A stretch of 64,000 nt of DNA, taken from NCBI RefSeq assembly GCF_044324785.1, contig NZ_CP172127.1; one strand, written 5' to 3'. Origin of the DNA: Escherichia coli. GTDB lineage: Bacteria; Pseudomonadota; Gammaproteobacteria; Enterobacterales; Enterobacteriaceae. The notes below the pieces were generated by a model. It searched no databases. It was not told the DNA's origin and saw only the letters and a program-made list of their open reading frames with translations. Positions within the stretch are counted from its first letter, which is position 1. Each line of letters begins with the position of its first letter. Positions 12,677-53,685 of this stretch are shown piece by piece. Made by a program: the position numbers and the translations under genes.

Positions 12677-13452
12677 TTTTCAGGATAATCTATTGGGGGG
12701 AGGGGATCTTTTCCTCTAAATCTAATTGCACCCACGCCTTGTTTGTCAGACCATTCGCCATTTGCATCCTGACGATACCAGTGATAATCCCCACCCATTC
12801 CTATAAAATTGTGAGGACGAATAAACAATTGAGCTTTATGGTAACCAGATGGACAACTCCCATTATCTAAATCCTTGGCACCATCATTTTTTGACGCTTC
12901 AAAAATACTACTACAAGTGAGTTTAGAAAACTCTTTTCCAGATAATTCTCCAGGTTGTAATCCTCCGCCGCCAAAAATCCTACTCCCAGGATTTCCATAC
13001 CTATTTAGAGCATATGAATAGCAATTATTTACGGCAAGATAATACGCATCTGAATTTAGTTCTCGATTGAATACTGGAGCAGGTTTATCAATTAAGCCCA
13101 GCGGATCAATAGAATAGGTTGGATGTATGGAAGCATATACATACTGATTCCACCCGCCTTCCAGCCCAATCGGATCCTGAGTGATATACCGCCCCTGCAG
13201 CGGGTCATAATAGCGGTGGCGGTTGTAATACAGGCCGGACTCCTCATCATACTGCTGCCCCGGCAGACGGATAAGCTGCTGCAGGTGCTGCGGGTTCTCT
13301 TCATTCAGCAGGTTGCCCCATTCATCATATTCTGCGCACCATTCTGTTGCCCCGTCAGGGCTGATAAGCGTCAGCGGCAGGCCGCGATAGTCGCAGTGGT
13401 AGAGGTGGATTATTCGCAGTGATCTATATGCCAACGTCATCTTATTTTTCAT
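12649..13452 (-). CDS. Orphan Rhs C-terminal fragment (core remnant + DPLGL + variable toxin domain)
   Basis: N-terminal ~115 aa nearly identical to the end of the RhsC core; DPLGL boundary encoded at 13093..13107; downstream ~147 aa unique AT-rich sequence; lacks the remainder of the Rhs core. Confidence 0.6.
13161..13410. repeat. Direct repeat copy A of Rhs core 3' end
   Basis: About 250 bp that aligns in register with 14481..14730, with roughly 18 mismatches by eye. Confidence 0.8.
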
Positions 13453-13504
13453 CTACTCCAACGAGTAGACAAGTTTTTTATTAAACCATTTATACCTTTT
13501 ACGA

Positions 13505-14008
13505 TTAAATTTTCTTATGTAATAGAGGTGAATAATCTTCCCAAAAATCCATACAAGCTTTACTTGCATAAAAGAATCCAGCGTCTGATTCATAAGACAT
13601 AAACTGTGCAATAATAGATAGTTGTATATCTGAAAAATTAAAAACAAAATTCAAAAAATCATCGTGATCCCGATACTCAGGACATAAATATTGTTGAATA
13701 AAATCGGATTCAAAAACCCAAAAATCATTCTTATTAAACAACGAGGCATAAATATACAGAGGGATGTAATAGCAGAATACTTTCTCAGGGAGGAATGTAA
13801 TTCCTAACTCTAAAGCATAAGAGTCATCCTTTATTTTAAAATTGTTGGCTATTTCATTCCATTGTTTCTTTTGGAAAAAATTATATACAATATCCAGTTC
13901 CTCCAGCCCTGTAATATCATTTGAAATATGAGGTAATGGCTGGCATGGGAAATGAATCATAAGTTCATCATAGACTGCACTCTCGTTAGAGAAAATTATT
14001 TTTTTCAT
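13505..14008 (-). CDS. Candidate RhsC immunity protein (RhsI-like), cytoplasmic
   Basis: ORF 13505..14026; ATG at 14008 overlaps rhsC stop as ATGA; no signal peptide; strongly AT-rich. Confidence 0.55.
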
Positions 14009-17000
14009 TTTATTAAGCCACTGCAATCAGCTGCTGTTTTATATGCTTTATTCTCTTCTTCCATATGGGCCTTATCTCCACCACCAAAGCACTGATTATT
14101 AATCTGCTTTCTGACCGAAGCGCACGCCAAATTTATCTCGTACCGTCTCAATATTTCTTTTCTCAGCATCTGAGGAGCGCAAGCTCTAGACTGGTTACAT
14201 AATCTGTTTTTTTCATTTTGTAAGTCACTCAGGTTCTGGGGACTACAGTTACCACCAGGATTTACACCTGACTTATGTTCATCTGTTAATTTGTCGGCTT
14301 CTGGATTAACTTTACGGCCATATTGATCTCTGCGTTGTTGCCCACTTTGGATAACACCACCTGATGAAAACAAACCGCAACTCATCAGTGCTACAACACC
14401 AAGAATTAACGGATTTAACCCTTGTGGGTCTATCTCTGAGATCGGATTTAACGGATACTGATAAAAATTCCATCCCCCCTTCAGTCCAATCGGATCCTGA
14501 GTGATATACCGCCCCTTCAGCGGGTCATAATAGCGGTGGCGGTTGTAATACAGGCCGGACTCCTCATCATACTGCTGACCCGGCAGGCGGATGAGCTGCT
14601 GCAGCTGGTGCGGGTTCTCTTCATTCAGCAGGTTGCCCCATTCATCGTATTCTGCGCACCATTCTGTTGCCCCTTCCGTGCTGACAAGCGCCAGCGGCAG
14701 GCCGCGATGGTCGCAGTGGTACAGGTGGATTTTTCGCGCCGGCGTGTACACCGGGTCCATCTGGTTTTGTATCTGCTCCACCGTCAGGCCGCACGATGCC
14801 AGCCAGCGGCGGCTTTCCTCACTCACCCGGTCAGCCAGGATTTCACTTTCCAGCCGGTCGAGCATCTGCACCAGCACCGGCGGGAACACCACACTGCCAC
14901 CGTCTTCACCGCCGGACTGCTGAAGCGCATCCGCCAGGCTGCGGCGCTGCGTTTTCGCCAGCTCACCGGTGGCGGTTTCGACCCTGATGAGTGGCGTGAA
15001 GCTCCCCGGCTGATAAACCGTCTGGATGCGGGTTCTGTCGTTCTGTATCGTGGTCAGCCGGTCGCCGTCCCAGCCGTACCAGGTCACTTCCGGTTTCCGT
15101 GACAGCGACATCCAGCCCGTCAGGTCCCGTTCACGCCGCCACACCCGTTTTGCCACCCTGCGGCCCAGCGGGTCGTAAAGATAGCGACTTTCGACCAGCG
15201 GCTCTGCATATTGTGTCCGCGTGTAGTGCACCAGCCGGTGCCGGCTGTCGTAATGGTACTGGTGAGTCCGCTCATCATCCGTGCGGATAACCCCTTCCGG
15301 GATGAGGTCGGTTTTCTCTGTCAGCCTGCCGTGACGGTCATACCGGTAAAGATAGTGCGCGTCACGGGCGATACGGTTATCCGGCCACATGCTGAGGGTG
15401 CTGTCCGGGTGCAGCTCCGGGTCGGGCAGGCGGTTGCCTGCCGGGTCCGTGGCATACGGGATGCGGATATCAAGGTTCGCTGCCGTGGTGTGGACGCCGG
15501 TCAGCCTGCCGGTGTCGCTGTAGCTGTAACTCCGGGTCTGGCGCGGGCTGCTGATGCGGATGAGTTCGCCGTTGTCGTTCCAGGTGTAATCGCGGTCATA
15601 CTGCAGGCTGTTCAGGTGCTGGCTCTGTAACTGCCCGGCAGAGGTATAAGCGGTGGTGAGTTCATAACGGCCGAAGCTGCGCAGCGTTTCCCGGTGCAGG
15701 CGGTCGCGGGTATACTCCACCAGCGGTGTGTCGCCGAGTTTCATGCCTGCCAGCCAGCCGCTGCCGTAAGTCAGCCATTCCACGGCGGGCAGGCTGTCCG
15801 GTATACAGCGGTTCGCCAGCCCCTGCGCGTTGTACGCATGTCTGGTTTCATGCTGCCAGAGCAGTGCTTCCGTCTGCGGGTGATGCACCGTCTGGCGCTC
15901 ACCGGTCAGGCGGCCTTTCTCATCATACCCGTAATGCACCGTCACCCGGTGGCCTTCGCTGAGATGGCTGATGCCTGTCAGCCAGCCGCGTTCGTCATAC
16001 TGCCACTGCTCTGCAGGTTCACCCTTCACGGTACGCTGCGTGATGCGGTCTGCTTCGTCATAGTGCCAGTGGGTGACCAGCCCCTCATCCTCGCTGCGGA
16101 TAAGTTTGCCGGTCAGGTCGTGGTGATAACGCTGTGTACGGCCGTCAAAGCCGGTTTCCTGTATCAGCCGGTCGAGTACATCGTAACGGAAGGTGGTGTG
16201 GCTGCCGTTTTCACTGGTCAGGCGGATGACCCGTCCGGCAGCATCGTATTCCATACTGCGCGTCAGACCGCCCTGCGTGGTACGGATGGCCTTTCCCCAC
16301 GCATCGTACTGTGTCCCGTTTCTGCTGCCGTCCGGGGCAATGACGGCGGTCAGGTCACCGGCGGCGTTGTATTCATACCGCGTTTCATGGCCCTGCATGT
16401 CTTTCACCGCAATTAACTGTCCACGGCTGTCGTATGCGCGGTACTGGCTCAGGCCTTCCTCGCGGTGCACCGCCGTCACCTGACCAAAACGGTCATGGTC
16501 ATAACGGGTTACATAACCGGAACAGTCAGTGACGGTCAGCAACTGACCGTAACGGCTCCATGTCATGGTTTTCCGGCTGCCGGTGGCATCTTCCGTTGCG
16601 CAGGGTAAGTCACTGTGTGGATTATCATAACGGTAGCGGGTGATATCGCCGTTGTGTGCGGTTTCCTGAATCAGACGGCCGGATTCATCATATTCCCGGC
16701 GCAACTCCAGCCCGTCAGTCCCGGTGGCTGACGTTAACTGGTTGTGGTGGTTATAGTAAAACGCCGATGCCCTGCCATCCGGTGTGGTGATGCGCGTGAT
16801 GAGTCCCGTCACCACATCCGGGCTGTACTCAGTCGTCCGGCCTGCGGCATCCGTCTGTGCCTTAAGCCTGCCCACCGCGTCAAACTGACTCTGCGTGACG
16901 CTGCCGTCCGCGTGTTCCTTTTTCACCACCCGCTTCAGCCCGCCTTCGCCCTGCGTGTGCAGGACTTCACGGCGGTCCAGGCTGTCGGTGATGGTGATGT

Positions 17001-18156
17001 GGTCTTTCTCATACTGATACGTGTAGCTTAAGCCTGCCGGGTTTAGCTGTTCTGTCACCCGCCCGTCACTGTCGTAACGGTAACGGATTTCCGGCCGGCC
17101 CGTGTGACGGTGCGCCACCATCCGGCCCCGGTATTTATCATCGTAAGTAAAGCTGCGCACCTGTGTGCCGCTGCGGTCATACACCGCCGCCAGTTCGCCG
17201 CGTGGCGTCCAGCCATAGCGTACCAGCGGCGCGGCTGGCAGGTTGTCCGGATATTCCGGGTCGTGCGTCAGCCACACGGCAGACAGACGGATGCCGTTGT
17301 CCCGGCCATATTCGGTGTAACCCGGCAGGGTATCAGGAAAAGCGGACGGTTCCGCCCCGCCGGAAATGGCCTGCTGCCGGGCCTCTTCTGCCCGCAACGC
17401 CTGCGTGGTCAGTACCAGCCGGAAGTGACGCCCGGCACCATCCGTCACGCCGGTGATTTCGCCGCTGAATTCGCCGCCAGCCTCACGGTGGAACGTCTGT
17501 GTGCGCCCGAAGCGGTCCACCAGCCCGGTCAGTACCCGGTACGGCGGCAGTGGCGCAGGCAGCACCTCATCCGCCTCCGGCACCCGCTCACACCAGCCGA
17601 GTACCCACCACGGCCCCTGCGGACTGTTCGTCGCCAGATAACGATGCGGACTCAGGCGAAGCTCTTCCGGCAGCGCCTGCCAGAGTGCGGCCAGCCGGTG
17701 ACCTTCATCCAGTTTCGCCACGCCGCCGCGCACCAGCCAGAGTGACTCGCTGCGGCTGTAACCGTCCTCACCGGGAAACAGGTGCTCAAAATACAGGCTT
17801 CTGCCGCCGTTATCACTGAGTATCAGTGTGTTATCGCGCAGCTGTAAGCGGATATCCGCAGGCATTTTCCAGCCGGGGCCGAGGCTCCCCACCGGCGCGG
17901 GCGTTTTTGTCCGGTAACTGCTGTAGGTGCGGGAGAGGATGAACGGCAGCGGGCCGGGCAGGGCAAGGTCGGTTTCTCCGGGAAGGACCTTCGCACCGAG
18001 CAGCGGATTGACCGGATGGCCGGACGTCACCCCGCCGGGGCACACCGAACAGGCCACGCCGGTGGGGGCACCAATACGTACCCCGGCTGAACCCTGAACA
18101 ATGCTACCGCCATACTGCGTCATGTCGCCCTGACGCGCCGCCGGTTTTCCGCTCAT
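14005..18156 (-). CDS. rhsC: Rhs family polymorphic toxin (PAAR-like N-terminus, YD-repeat core, C-terminal toxin domain)
   Basis: 1383-aa ORF; N-terminus [25 protein letters not shown]; many YD-type repeats; DPQGL encoded at 14416..14430; position between ybgA and ybfA/kdp matches the rhsC locus. Confidence 0.9.
14481..14730. repeat. Direct repeat copy B of Rhs core 3' end (inside rhsC)
   Basis: Partner of 13161..13410. Confidence 0.8.
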
Positions 18157-44641: not shown

Positions 44642-44718
44642 GGCTACGTAGCTCAGTTGGTTAGAGCACATCACTCATAATGATGGGGTCACAGGTTCGA
44701 ATCCCGTCGTAGCCACCA
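44642..44718 (+). tRNA. metT: tRNA-Met (CAU), elongator type
   Basis: 77-nt cloverleaf-compatible sequence, anticodon loop CTCATAA, 3' CCA encoded. Confidence 0.9.
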
Positions 44719-44726
44719 TCTTTTTT

Positions 44727-44811
44727 GCGGGAGTGGCGAAATTGGTAGACGCACCAGATTTAGGTTCTGGCGCCGCAAGGTGTGCGAGTTCAAGTCTCGC
44801 CTCCCGCACCA
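44727..44811 (+). tRNA. leuW: tRNA-Leu (UAG)
   Basis: 85-nt sequence with long variable arm, anticodon loop TTTAGGT, CCA end. Confidence 0.9.
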
Positions 44812-44834
44812 TTCACCAGAAAGCGTTGTACGGA

Positions 44835-44909
44835 TGGGGTATCGCCAAGCGGTAAGGCACCGGTTTTTGATACCGGCATTCCCTGGTTCGAATCCAGGTA
44901 CCCCAGCCA
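44835..44909 (+). tRNA. glnU: tRNA-Gln (UUG)
   Basis: 75-nt sequence, anticodon stem CCGGT/ACCGG with loop TTTTGAT, CCA end. Confidence 0.9.
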
Positions 44910-44924
44910 TCGAAGAAACAATCT

Positions 44925-45001
44925 GGCTACGTAGCTCAGTTGGTTAGAGCACATCACTCATAATGATGGGGTCACAGGTTCGAATCCCGTCGTAGCCACC
45001 A
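44925..45001 (+). tRNA. metU: tRNA-Met (CAU), elongator type, second copy
   Basis: Identical to 44642..44718. Confidence 0.9.
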
Positions 45002-45049
45002 AATTCTGAATGTGTCGAATAAGTTCGGCAAATTCACAAACCAATTTGT

Positions 45050-45124
45050 TGGGGTATCGCCAAGCGGTAAGGCACCGGATTCTGATTCCGGCATTCCGAG
45101 GTTCGAATCCTCGTACCCCAGCCA
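45050..45124 (+). tRNA. glnV: tRNA-Gln (CUG)
   Basis: 75-nt sequence, anticodon loop TTCTGAT, CCA end. Confidence 0.9.
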
Positions 45125-52607: not shown

Positions 52608-53516
52608 ATGCAATTACGTAAACCTGCCACAGCAATCCTGGCCCTGGCGCTTTCCGCAGGACTGGCACAGGCAGATGACGCCGCCCCGGCAGCGGGCAGT
52701 ACTCTGGACAAAATCGCCAAAAACGGTGTGATTGTCGTCGGTCACCGTGAATCTTCAGTGCCTTTCTCTTATTACGACAATCAGCAAAAAGTGGTGGGTT
52801 ACTCGCAGGATTACTCCAACGCCATTGTTGAAGCAGTGAAAAAGAAACTCAACAAACCGGACTTGCAGGTAAAACTGATTCCGATTACCTCACAAAACCG
52901 TATTCCGCTGCTGCAAAACGGCACTTTTGATTTTGAATGTGGCTCTACCACCAACAACGTCGAACGCCAAAAACAGGCGGCTTTCTCTGACACTATTTTC
53001 GTGGTCGGTACGCGCCTGCTGACCAAAAAGGGCGGCGATATCAAAGATTTTGCCGACCTGAAAGGCAAAGCCGTAGTCGTCACTTCCGGCACTACCTCTG
53101 AAGTTTTGCTCAACAAATTGAATGAAGAGCAAAAAATGAATATGCGCATCATCAGCGCCAAAGATCACGGTGACTCTTTCCGCACCCTGGAAAGCGGTCG
53201 TGCTGTTGCCTTTATGATGGATGACGCTCTGCTGGCCGGTGAACGTGCGAAAGCGAAGAAACCAGACAACTGGGATATCGTCGGCAAGCCGCAGTCTCAG
53301 GAAGCCTACGGTTGCATGTTGCGTAAAGATGATCCGCAGTTCAAAAAGCTGATGGATGACACCATCGCGCAGGTGCAGACCTCCGGTGAAGCGGAAAAAT
53401 GGTTTGATAAGTGGTTTAAAAATCCCATTCCGCCGAAAAACCTGAACATGAATTTCGAGCTGTCAGACGAAATGAAAGCACTGTTCAAAGAACCGAATGA
53501 TAAGGCACTGAACTAA
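52608..53516 (+). CDS. gltI: Glutamate/aspartate ABC transporter periplasmic binding protein
   Basis: ATG at 52608 after AAAGGA RBS; signal peptide MQLRKPATAILALALSAGLAQA; 302 aa. Confidence 0.9.
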   Translation: MQLRKPATAILALALSAGLAQADDAAPAAGSTLDKIAKNGVIVVGHRESSVPFSYYDNQQKVVGYSQDYSNAIVEAVKKKLNKPDLQVKLIPITSQNRIPLLQNGTFDFECGSTTNNVERQKQAAFSDTIFVVGTRLLTKKGGDIKDFADLKGKAVVVTSGTTSEVLLNKLNEEQKMNMRIISAKDHGDSFRTLESGRAVAFMMDDALLAGERAKAKKPDNWDIVGKPQSQEAYGCMLRKDDPQFKKLMDDTIAQVQTSGEAEKWFDKWFKNPIPPKNLNMNFELSDEMKALFKEPNDKALN

Positions 53517-53672
53517 TTACAAGAACCAGGGGCGGAAATTCCAGCCCTCTCGATTGTTACGTAGCACGGACAGACTATACGCCTGATGGTCGTTCCCCAT
53601 CGGGCCTGAAAACCGCAATACGCTGGGTAACAATCTTCGAGGGTAGCAGTTAACGCTGCTACCCTCTTTTTT
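53512..53672 (+). ncRNA. sroC: Candidate SroC sRNA (processed from gltI-gltJ spacer)
   Basis: 169-bp gltI-gltJ intergenic region ending in strong terminator; SroC is described at this position in E. coli/Salmonella; 5' end not determinable from sequence. Confidence 0.4.
53637..53670 (+). terminator. Intrinsic terminator in gltI-gltJ spacer
   Basis: GAGGGTAGCAGttaacGCTGCTACCCTCTTTTTT. Confidence 0.8.
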
Positions 53673-53685
53673 CTGGAGTAGATTT

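Follow-up and report, generated by a model that had tools for sequence, protein, structure and literature searches.

Rhs toxins are a main currency of contact-dependent competition in enterobacteria. In the Rhs proteins that have been studied, a DPxGL motif is the site at which the variable C-terminal tip is released by autoproteolysis. Among the closest known relatives of the locus described here are the K-12-type Rhs elements of Escherichia coli (RhsA-E); in Dickeya dadantii the RhsA/RhsB-RhsI pairs were reportedly studied experimentally by Koskiniemi and co-workers in 2013, and their tips are said to be DNases of other folds. Here we analyse the rhsC gene and the adjoining 167-aa open reading frame (ORF) of a 64,000-nucleotide stretch of E. 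coli DNA, hereafter the window (RefSeq assembly GCF_044324785.1, contig NZ_CP172127.1). The locus resembles the K-12-type elements in having a core that scores above the cutoff of the RHS_core model NF041261, in lying at the rhsC site, and in its DPxGL motif, AT-rich tip, small immunity gene and orphan fragment, but the tip of K-12 RhsC is unrelated to the tip in the window. With the Dickeya systems it shares the plan of Rhs core, tip and immunity gene, but the tip family is different.

We find that the tip belongs to Ntox16 (PF15523), a family defined computationally as alpha-helical, with a conserved Arg and a [DNE]xxH signature, found on RHS-repeat and Photorhabdus virulence cassette (PVC)-metallopeptidase proteins and linked to the secretion systems of type II and type VI (T6SS) and PVC (Zhang et al., 2012; PMC3482391). 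No immunity protein is given for Ntox16 in that paper, which describes another family, Ntox15, as 'mostly alpha, HxxD' and as paired with SUKH immunity proteins; six conserved cysteines of Ntox16 go unmentioned (Zhang et al., 2012; PMC3482391). In the literature searched, Ntox16/PF15523 and DUF6714/PF20461 turned up in this study and in one incidental mention, this study alone naming Ntox16, and no activity is reported for any Ntox16 member. The domain in the window agrees with the published description in its profile match, its helical character, its R and [DNE]xxH residues and its place at the C-terminus of an RHS-repeat protein; it differs in extending about 25 residues further N-terminal, in having a DUF6714 partner, and in its six conserved cysteines. 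As set out below, DUF6714 is likely to be the cognate immunity family of Ntox16, a new proposal that fills a blank in the founding paper.

The rhsC tip is an Ntox16 domain

The features of the toxin/immunity module on which the argument draws are the following:

14005..18156 (stop codon included), minus strand: rhsC, a complete Rhs polymorphic toxin gene, 1383 aa (ORF listing, NCBIfam RHS_core)
14416..14430, minus strand: DPQGL motif that closes the Rhs core, codons gac cca caa ggg tta, read from the sequence
14008..14415, minus strand: variable C-terminal toxin tip, 136 aa, after DPQGL (G+C 0.409, against 0.619 in the core)
14350..14409, minus strand: transmembrane-like hydrophobic segment of 20 residues, tip residues 3-22 (hydropathy)
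14008..14328, minus strand: conserved toxin domain, tip residues 30-136 (conservation and AlphaFold2 model)
14017..14256, minus strand: Pfam Ntox16 match (PF15523), tip residues 54-133
14110..14112, minus strand: codon of R102, the conserved family Arg (152-sequence conservation)
14065..14076, minus strand: D114-K-A-H117, the [DNE]xxH signature, at the N-terminus of the last helix and after the G112-G113 loop (152-sequence conservation)
14005..14008, minus strand: ATGA overlap of the rhsC stop codon (TGA) and the immunity start codon (ATG), read from the sequence
13505..14008, minus strand: candidate cytoplasmic immunity protein, 167 aa from ATG, a divergent DUF6714 protein predicted to be all-alpha (PF20461 and model)

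RhsC begins with DUF6531 (E=3.7e-18) and RHS repeats, and its YD repeats are matched at E=8.8e-37. The NCBIfam equivalog RHS_core (NF041261) covers residues 1-1247 with 2628 bits, against a cutoff of 2000, and the Rhs-associated core model (Rhs_assc_core, TIGR03696) spans residues 1170-1247; both models stop at residue 1247, which is the L of DPQGL. A previous reading of the locus, made from the sequence only, had put the core boundary at this motif and estimated the tip at about 137 aa, in close agreement with the 136 aa measured here. The motif is the putative autoproteolytic release site of the tip.

The sequence-only reading could not place the tip in a toxin family, and in this it has to be amended: a Pfam search matched the tip to Ntox16 (E=8.8e-13, 48.7 bits, model positions 2-84 of 85). 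Because Ntox16 is only computationally defined, the tip does not thereby join a well-characterised toxin family, an outcome which that reading had named as contrary to it. Proteins identical to the toxin in the window carry a precomputed PF15523 match, and the name 'Novel toxin 16 domain-containing protein' is given to a Shigella fragment of 99% identity. RefSeq labels the same two genes 'RHS element core protein' and 'hypothetical protein'. In the tip, Pfam recognises Ntox16 alone (the scan at E<=10 lists no Ntox15), and NCBIfam and PADLOC scans gave no family for either the tip or the 167-aa ORF.

The tip is laid out as a hydrophobic segment, a short basic linker and a four-helix domain of about 107 aa. 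A hydrophobic stretch followed by a Cys-rich region had been noticed before, and both are present: a stretch of 19 residues has a mean Kyte-Doolittle hydropathy of 2.0 (measured on the identical protein P0001), and the tip holds seven Cys residues. Among close relatives the sequence of the hydrophobic segment varies and its hydrophobic character is kept; in the model its pLDDT (predicted local distance difference test) is 53-56. Of 137 representatives, 40 have a comparable segment in the 65 aa that precede the domain; in a control window placed further upstream the figure is 15 of 74. An upstream enrichment of the transmembrane-like segment is therefore not convincing, and a role for it in membrane entry is speculative.

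Conservation across the Ntox16 family

A profile built from close relatives retrieved 293 cluster representatives of Ntox16 at E<=1e-3 among 1.84 billion proteins, with the domain at the C-terminus in nearly all of them. The conservation figures that follow come from 152 aligned domains and use tip numbering. Six cysteines are near-invariant (C57, 100%; C73, 99%; C79, 99%; C98, 97%; C109, 95%; C131, 95%), as are R102 (97%) and H117 (95%); D114 is found in 81% (plus 14% N), G112 in 94%, G113 in 93%, G55 in 93%, L65 in 91%, Q66 in 79%, F110 in 77% and N106 in 74%. In an alignment of 83 sequences the invariant columns are C57, C79, C98, R102, C109 and H117. Within the Enterobacterales, conservation starts at D30, about 25 residues N-terminal of the Pfam model, which adds a helix (residues 38-49) to the domain.

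An extra Cys at position 85 occurs in 42 of the 152 sequences; it is present in 15 of the 17 sequences that also have a Cys in the C-terminal tail, and has no detected partner in 24. The two positions are expected to be adjacent in the antiparallel hairpin of helices 3 and 4, which suggests an optional fourth disulfide.

Members of the family elsewhere are fused to RHS repeats and to DUF4157, and some are Sec-exported or lipoproteins. We take DUF4157, a marker of injection systems, to be the PVC-metallopeptidase of the founding description.

A confident model of the tip

An AlphaFold2 model of the tip, made with the 83-sequence alignment, has a mean pLDDT of 89.8 and a predicted template-modelling score (pTM) of 0.77. 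It has four helices (residues 38-49, 59-73, 85-109 and 115-135) with pLDDT values of 96-99, preceded by residues 1-27, which are of low confidence. To judge from the helix topology, a conserved polar cluster formed by G55, R102, N106, G112-G113, D114 and H117 appears to sit at one end of the bundle; the turn G55-N56-C57, the last part of helix 3 (R102, N106, C109) and the G-G-D loop, with H117 opening helix 4, would meet there. This cluster is the most conserved surface of the modelled domain and its likeliest functional site.

Three known kinds of domain were compared with the tip and set aside. The Rx4-6H motif of HEPN RNases lies at the start of the last helix of a four-helix bundle; here the residues four to six positions before H117 are G111, G112 and G113, none of them an Arg, and HEPN is absent also from the Pfam scan and from the PDB fold matches of the tip. 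Secreted phospholipase A2 was considered for the run C-F-G-G-G-D..H and the many cysteines; its CCxxHDxC dyad and YCGxGG calcium loop are not reproduced, H117 being followed by M here, by R in 51% of the family and not by the D of the dyad, and neither a Pfam nor a fold match was found. A periplasmic lipid target is moreover disfavoured because the immunity protein is cytoplasmic. The tip fails as an Ntox15 domain on both the HxxD motif and the Pfam profile.

DUF6714 is the likely immunity family of Ntox16

The rhsC stop codon and the start codon of the 167-aa ORF overlap as ATGA, as noticed previously, which suggests translational coupling of the tip and the ORF; site scans of the minus strand found neither a promoter-like nor a terminator-like site between the two genes, and RNA-family and transfer RNA (tRNA) scans gave no Rfam family or tRNA in the tip-immunity region. 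We prefer the ATG to an upstream TTG because homologues begin at the same MKK. By our own rough estimate the chance of a 167-codon open frame in DNA of 30% G+C is about 1e-6. The 100% identical gene in RefSeq is annotated as a hypothetical protein (WP_000720081.1).

As had been claimed, the ORF lacks a signal peptide: its N-terminus has a maximum 12-residue hydropathy of 0.70, with no region resembling a signal peptide, against 2.17 in the signal-peptide ORF of the orphan module (see below), and the maximum 19-residue hydropathy of the whole protein, 1.16, is that of a soluble protein. On its own, the ORF matches DUF6714 (PF20461) weakly (E=3.9e-5, 24.1 bits). However, 12 of its 17 aligned relatives match DUF6714 at E<=1e-3 (best, 4.7e-18), and it aligns end to end with clear DUF6714 members. 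In a fused toxin-linker-immunity run of AlphaFold2 the immunity part was all helical, with pLDDT values of 88-97.

Support for its role comes from the gene neighbourhoods of other Ntox16 members. Twelve further members were examined in their contigs, giving 11 informative, hand-picked loci that range from Enterobacterales to metagenomes. In nine of these 11, a DUF6714-type ORF without a signal peptide lies directly 3' of the Ntox16 gene: at seven loci (L002, L004, L006, L009, L012, L013 and L015) the gene has a precomputed DUF6714 match, and at two, L003 and L005, the protein matches a hidden Markov model (HMM) built only from the enterobacterial immunity proteins (E=1e-33 and 2e-5). The downstream gene of L010 is ambiguous against that HMM (E=0.77), and L007/L008, where an unrelated 216-aa neighbour follows Ntox16, is the one locus without a DUF6714 partner. 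A 4-base overlap of toxin and immunity genes recurs at six loci (L002, L003, L005, L009, L012 and L015). The N-terminal parts of the toxins differ from locus to locus (Rhs shells, DUF6531, a lipoprotein, other domains), which ties the association to the Ntox16 domain itself. No signal peptide, lipobox or transmembrane segment was found in the 10 DUF6714-type or related downstream proteins checked, even next to the lipoprotein-type, Sec-exported Ntox16 of L013. The conserved 3' synteny thus makes DUF6714 the likely cognate cytoplasmic immunity family of Ntox16 and supports the earlier suggestion that the coupled ORF is a cytoplasmic immunity gene.

Two of the contigs showed further features. 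In the metagenome contigs L007 (3001-4634) and L008 (529-2162), a 330-aa Ntox16 protein with a signal peptide and the unrelated 216-aa ORF share a tight operon that sits between gyrB and gyrA, with dnaN and dciA upstream; they may have been inserted there by coincidence, or the position may point to the target. In L013, a weak match to Tae4, a peptidoglycan amidase effector, lies at 1864-2382, just upstream of the lipoprotein-type Ntox16/DUF6714 pair, which suggests a small effector island.

Proposed mode of action

We consider it probable that the module encodes an enzymatic Rhs toxin of the Ntox16 family that acts in the cytoplasm and is neutralised by an immunity protein that binds it. The RhsC core (1247 aa), a shell of YD repeats that ends at DPQGL, would release the tip at that motif by autoproteolysis; delivery would be contact-dependent, presumably via a T6SS; the toxin would then act in the cytoplasm of the target cell, and the soluble, all-alpha DUF6714-type partner would neutralise it, most likely by direct binding. 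Since the immunity protein is cytoplasmic at every locus examined, the target should be intracellular, and the attachment of Ntox16 members to systems that inject directly into the cytosol (DUF4157, RHS) points the same way. The six cysteines may stabilise this very small domain, either as disulfide staples or as metal ligands; the co-occurrence of C85 with a tail Cys counts toward disulfides.

As to the chemistry, our guess, a tentative one that is rather more likely wrong than right, is a hydrolase whose phosphate-bearing substrate could be, for instance, DNA, RNA or a nucleotide cofactor, and which would use H117, D114, R102 and the glycine-rich loops. The nuclease-type guess leans on the precedent of Ntox15/Tde1-Tdi1 of Agrobacterium tumefaciens, a small helical HxxD domain that, according to work attributed to Ma and co-workers in 2014, reportedly proved to be a T6SS DNase. 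Like Ntox16, Ntox15 is small and mostly helical, has a short acid/histidine motif, belongs with T6SS/PVC-associated families and has a cytoplasmic immunity protein; it differs in the order of the motif (HxxD rather than DxxH), in lacking the conserved cysteine set and in showing no detected sequence similarity, so that the likeness is an analogy only. Alternatively, and in our view unlikely, Ntox16 could be a structurally new four-helix toxin, cysteine-stapled or metal-thiolate, with a chemistry beyond that of nucleases, NADases or ADP-ribosyltransferases, with DUF6714 as its dedicated all-alpha immunity protein and with the hydrophobic segment, found in about 30% of members, aiding the entry of the released tip into, or its passage across, the inner membrane of the target. 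The placement of the L007/L008 operon between gyrB and gyrA is an odd lead for such a new chemistry.

Several observations weigh against a cytoplasm-acting, enzymatic toxin. Six near-invariant cysteines are odd for a toxin in the reducing cytoplasm and are a better fit to an extracytoplasmic, disulfide-bonded protein. By the periodicity expected of the helices, one helical face holds R102, N106, C98 and C109, and another H117, A121, A124, A128 and C131; the putative catalytic residues could be structural because they share helix faces with cysteines. No characterised fold emerged from the searches: profile searches of the toxin and immunity alignments against all PDB sequences gave no match at E<=10, Foldseek of the tip model against the PDB found nothing at E<=1e-3, and all 63 significant matches in AFDB50 are Ntox16/RHS proteins themselves (from E. 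coli, Shigella, Salmonella, Rahnella, Volucribacter, Cardiobacterium, Neisseria, Acetobacter, Akkermansia, Corallococcus and cyanobacteria, the cyanobacterial ones being fused to DUF4157). Both halves of the fused toxin-linker-immunity model, used as a proxy for the complex, are confident, and its pTM of 0.61 speaks neither for nor against a complex. As for T6SS delivery, PAAR gave a faint, partial match of 19 residues (E=0.21) at the N-terminus of RhsC, and neither vgrG nor eag lies next to rhsC, whose neighbours are ybfA and kdpFABC. A clear N-terminal PAAR domain and vgrG or eag neighbours, the marks of a PAAR-Rhs effector, were not found at this locus, which is of the 'neighbourless' type; neighbourless Rhs-CT proteins have been described as a separate class in E. 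coli (review, PMC6730261).

The cysteines would be accounted for if Ntox16 were a disulfide-bonded toxin that acts outside the cytoplasm, in the periplasm or envelope, with lipid or the cell wall as possible targets and with its six cysteines oxidised by the DsbA of the target cell. Their conservation (95-100% in 152 sequences), the pairing of C85 with a tail Cys in 15 of 17 sequences at positions expected to be adjacent, as is typical of an added disulfide, and the existence of Sec-exported and lipoprotein members all speak for this view. However, none of the 10 DUF6714-type or related downstream proteins has the signal peptide or lipobox that a periplasmic immunity protein would be expected to carry, and that the ORF of the orphan module does carry; the 24 sequences with an unpartnered C85 and the family members borne by systems that inject into the cytosol are also against it, and we hold a periplasmic toxin to be very unlikely. 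Hardly probable, too, is a membrane-inserting, depolarising toxin in which a pore or ion leak is built from the hydrophobic helix and the amphipathic helices, the conserved polar residues having a structural role. The transmembrane-like segment (hydropathy 2.0), its counterparts in 40 of 137 representatives, the all-helical domain and the conserved R, N and H residues on cysteine-bearing helix faces would suit a pore, but the segment is not significantly commoner than in the control window (15 of 74), some 70% of members do without it, the helices are polar and highly charged, and the immunity protein is soluble, whereas immunity to pore-forming effectors is normally conferred by a membrane protein.

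The other two alternatives concern the use of the module and the role of the ORF. The module could be intact but not in use as a weapon here, as a neighbourless Rhs retained chiefly for the protection that its immunity gene affords against toxin-delivering kin. The lack of any vgrG, eag or T6SS gene adjoining rhsC, the faint PAAR fragment, the precedent of the neighbourless class in E. coli (PMC6730261) and an Enterobacter quasimori locus in which the toxin copy has diverged after the GG loop beside an intact immunity gene are in keeping with this. Nevertheless, the 4.1-kb rhsC ORF is intact and reaches a full RHS core score, 243 genomes share the tip at 99% conservation or more, and a T6SS may be encoded elsewhere, the rest of the genome lying outside the window; we regard disuse as quite unlikely. 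Scarcely credible, finally, is that the 167-aa ORF is an accessory factor (a chaperone or adaptor) or an unrelated gene and not an immunity gene. The weakness of its own DUF6714 match (E=3.9e-5) and the pTM of the fused model (0.61) leave some room for such a role, but its position directly 3' of the tip, with the ATGA overlap, is kept across phyla-level distances and with varied delivery domains (Rhs, lipoprotein, other), and the ORF co-varies with the tip and not with the core. The chaperones of Rhs proteins (Eag), by contrast, lie upstream and bind N-terminal regions. We retain the cytoplasm-acting Ntox16 toxin with a DUF6714 immunity protein as the best account of the module.

A cassette of probable recent exchange at the rhsC site

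The gene order around the module is kdpFABC, ybfA, rhsC, orphan rhs fragment, ybgA and phr, which places it at the chromosomal rhsC site between ybfA/kdp and ybgA/phr, as in K-12-type Rhs elements of E. coli. The sequence-only reading had described the tip and the DNA downstream as more AT-rich than the core, consistent with a horizontally exchanged toxin/immunity module. The G+C profile agrees, stepping from 62% in the core through 41% in the tip to 30% in the ORF (0.619, 0.409 and 0.304, with 0.516 for the whole window), and so does the comparison with E. coli strain 7/2, in which identity rises toward the module:

phr: 95.1% identity to E. coli strain 7/2
ybgA: 94.9%
rhsC core: 95.8-98.1%
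tip: 99.76%
immunity gene and spacer: 100%
orphan core: 99.4%

The rise in identity, from 95% in phr/ybgA to 99.8-100% in the module, together with the steps in G+C, supports a recent horizontal exchange of the 3' module. The 1008 nt that hold the tip, immunity gene and spacer (13453-14460) recur with 99% identity or more, always on the chromosome, in 243 of the 5,426 complete E. coli genomes (about 4.5%); the cassette is also found in Shigella, and related forms in Salmonella, Citrobacter, Enterobacter, Lelliottia and Rahnella. The housekeeping flank (9000-12000, dtpD-phr-ybgA) reaches at best 97.2% identity to any of the 5,426 genomes, and 90-95% to most. It is probable that the window derives from a divergent lineage of Escherichia and that recent transfer accounts for the shared cassette. 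The exact arrangement of tip, immunity gene and full orphan is present in none of the complete E. coli genomes, the best match covering 70% of the 12200-14460 query, and in most of these genomes only a core-end repeat of about 280 nt matches the region.

Downstream of the immunity gene lies an orphan module; its features, and the direct repeat that it shares with rhsC, are the following:

14467..14737, minus strand: direct repeat of 271 nt, core-end copy, 93% identical to the orphan copy
13147..13417, minus strand: direct repeat, orphan-fragment copy
12649..13452, minus strand: orphan rhs fragment, 267 aa, consisting of the last ~120 aa of an Rhs core and a different tip of 147 aa (ORF listing)
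12290..12664, minus strand: ORF of 124 aa from ATG with a Sec-type signal peptide of 22 residues (hydropathy 2.17; no Pfam match)

The 147-aa orphan tip has no Pfam family and no PDB sequence match; it contains Cys/His-bearing stretches (NNCYSYA ... GDYHWY), and full-length Rhs proteins of 40 complete E. coli genomes carry it as their main tip. The 124-aa ORF is probably the periplasmic immunity protein of this tip, the pair acting in the periplasm. Recombination between the two repeat copies would remove the Ntox16/immunity module and join the orphan tip to rhsC. The repeat anatomy and the use of the orphan tip as a main tip elsewhere fit the model of Rhs-orphan displacement by recombination. 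Recombination of orphan Rhs tips was reportedly observed in Salmonella by Koskiniemi and co-workers in 2014, where, as here, a truncated core with a different tip and immunity gene lies downstream; the 271-nt, 93%-identical direct repeat belongs to the same picture. Recombination at the present locus, in contrast, is deduced from the anatomy and from the 40 genomes with the orphan tip as main tip.

Degraded copies of the cassette were seen in other genomes. In E. quasimori (P0009/P0018), an orphan Ntox16 copy next to an intact immunity gene is no longer similar beyond the GG loop; its C-terminus appears frameshifted and is without H117. P0039, from another genome, appears to be an immunity copy degraded by frameshift. 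Both cases fit immunity retention and cassette decay.

Elsewhere in the window, a cluster of five tRNA genes (Met, Leu, Gln, Met, Gln) and the small RNA sroC, at 44642-45124 and 53512-53674, are ordinary chromosomal features.

Significance for the Ntox16 family

The module is a genuine, correctly delimited Rhs toxin/immunity cassette of a known type, and it leaves the concepts of the field unchanged. What the analysis adds is the pairing of Ntox16 with DUF6714, an invariant cysteine set, extended domain limits (tip residues 30-136) and a confident model without a known fold relative. It is the first systematic link of Ntox16 to an immunity family, and gives DUF6714 a probable role; for the function of Ntox16 it marks out R102, D114, H117 and the six cysteines, with the cytoplasm as the likely compartment in which these toxins act.

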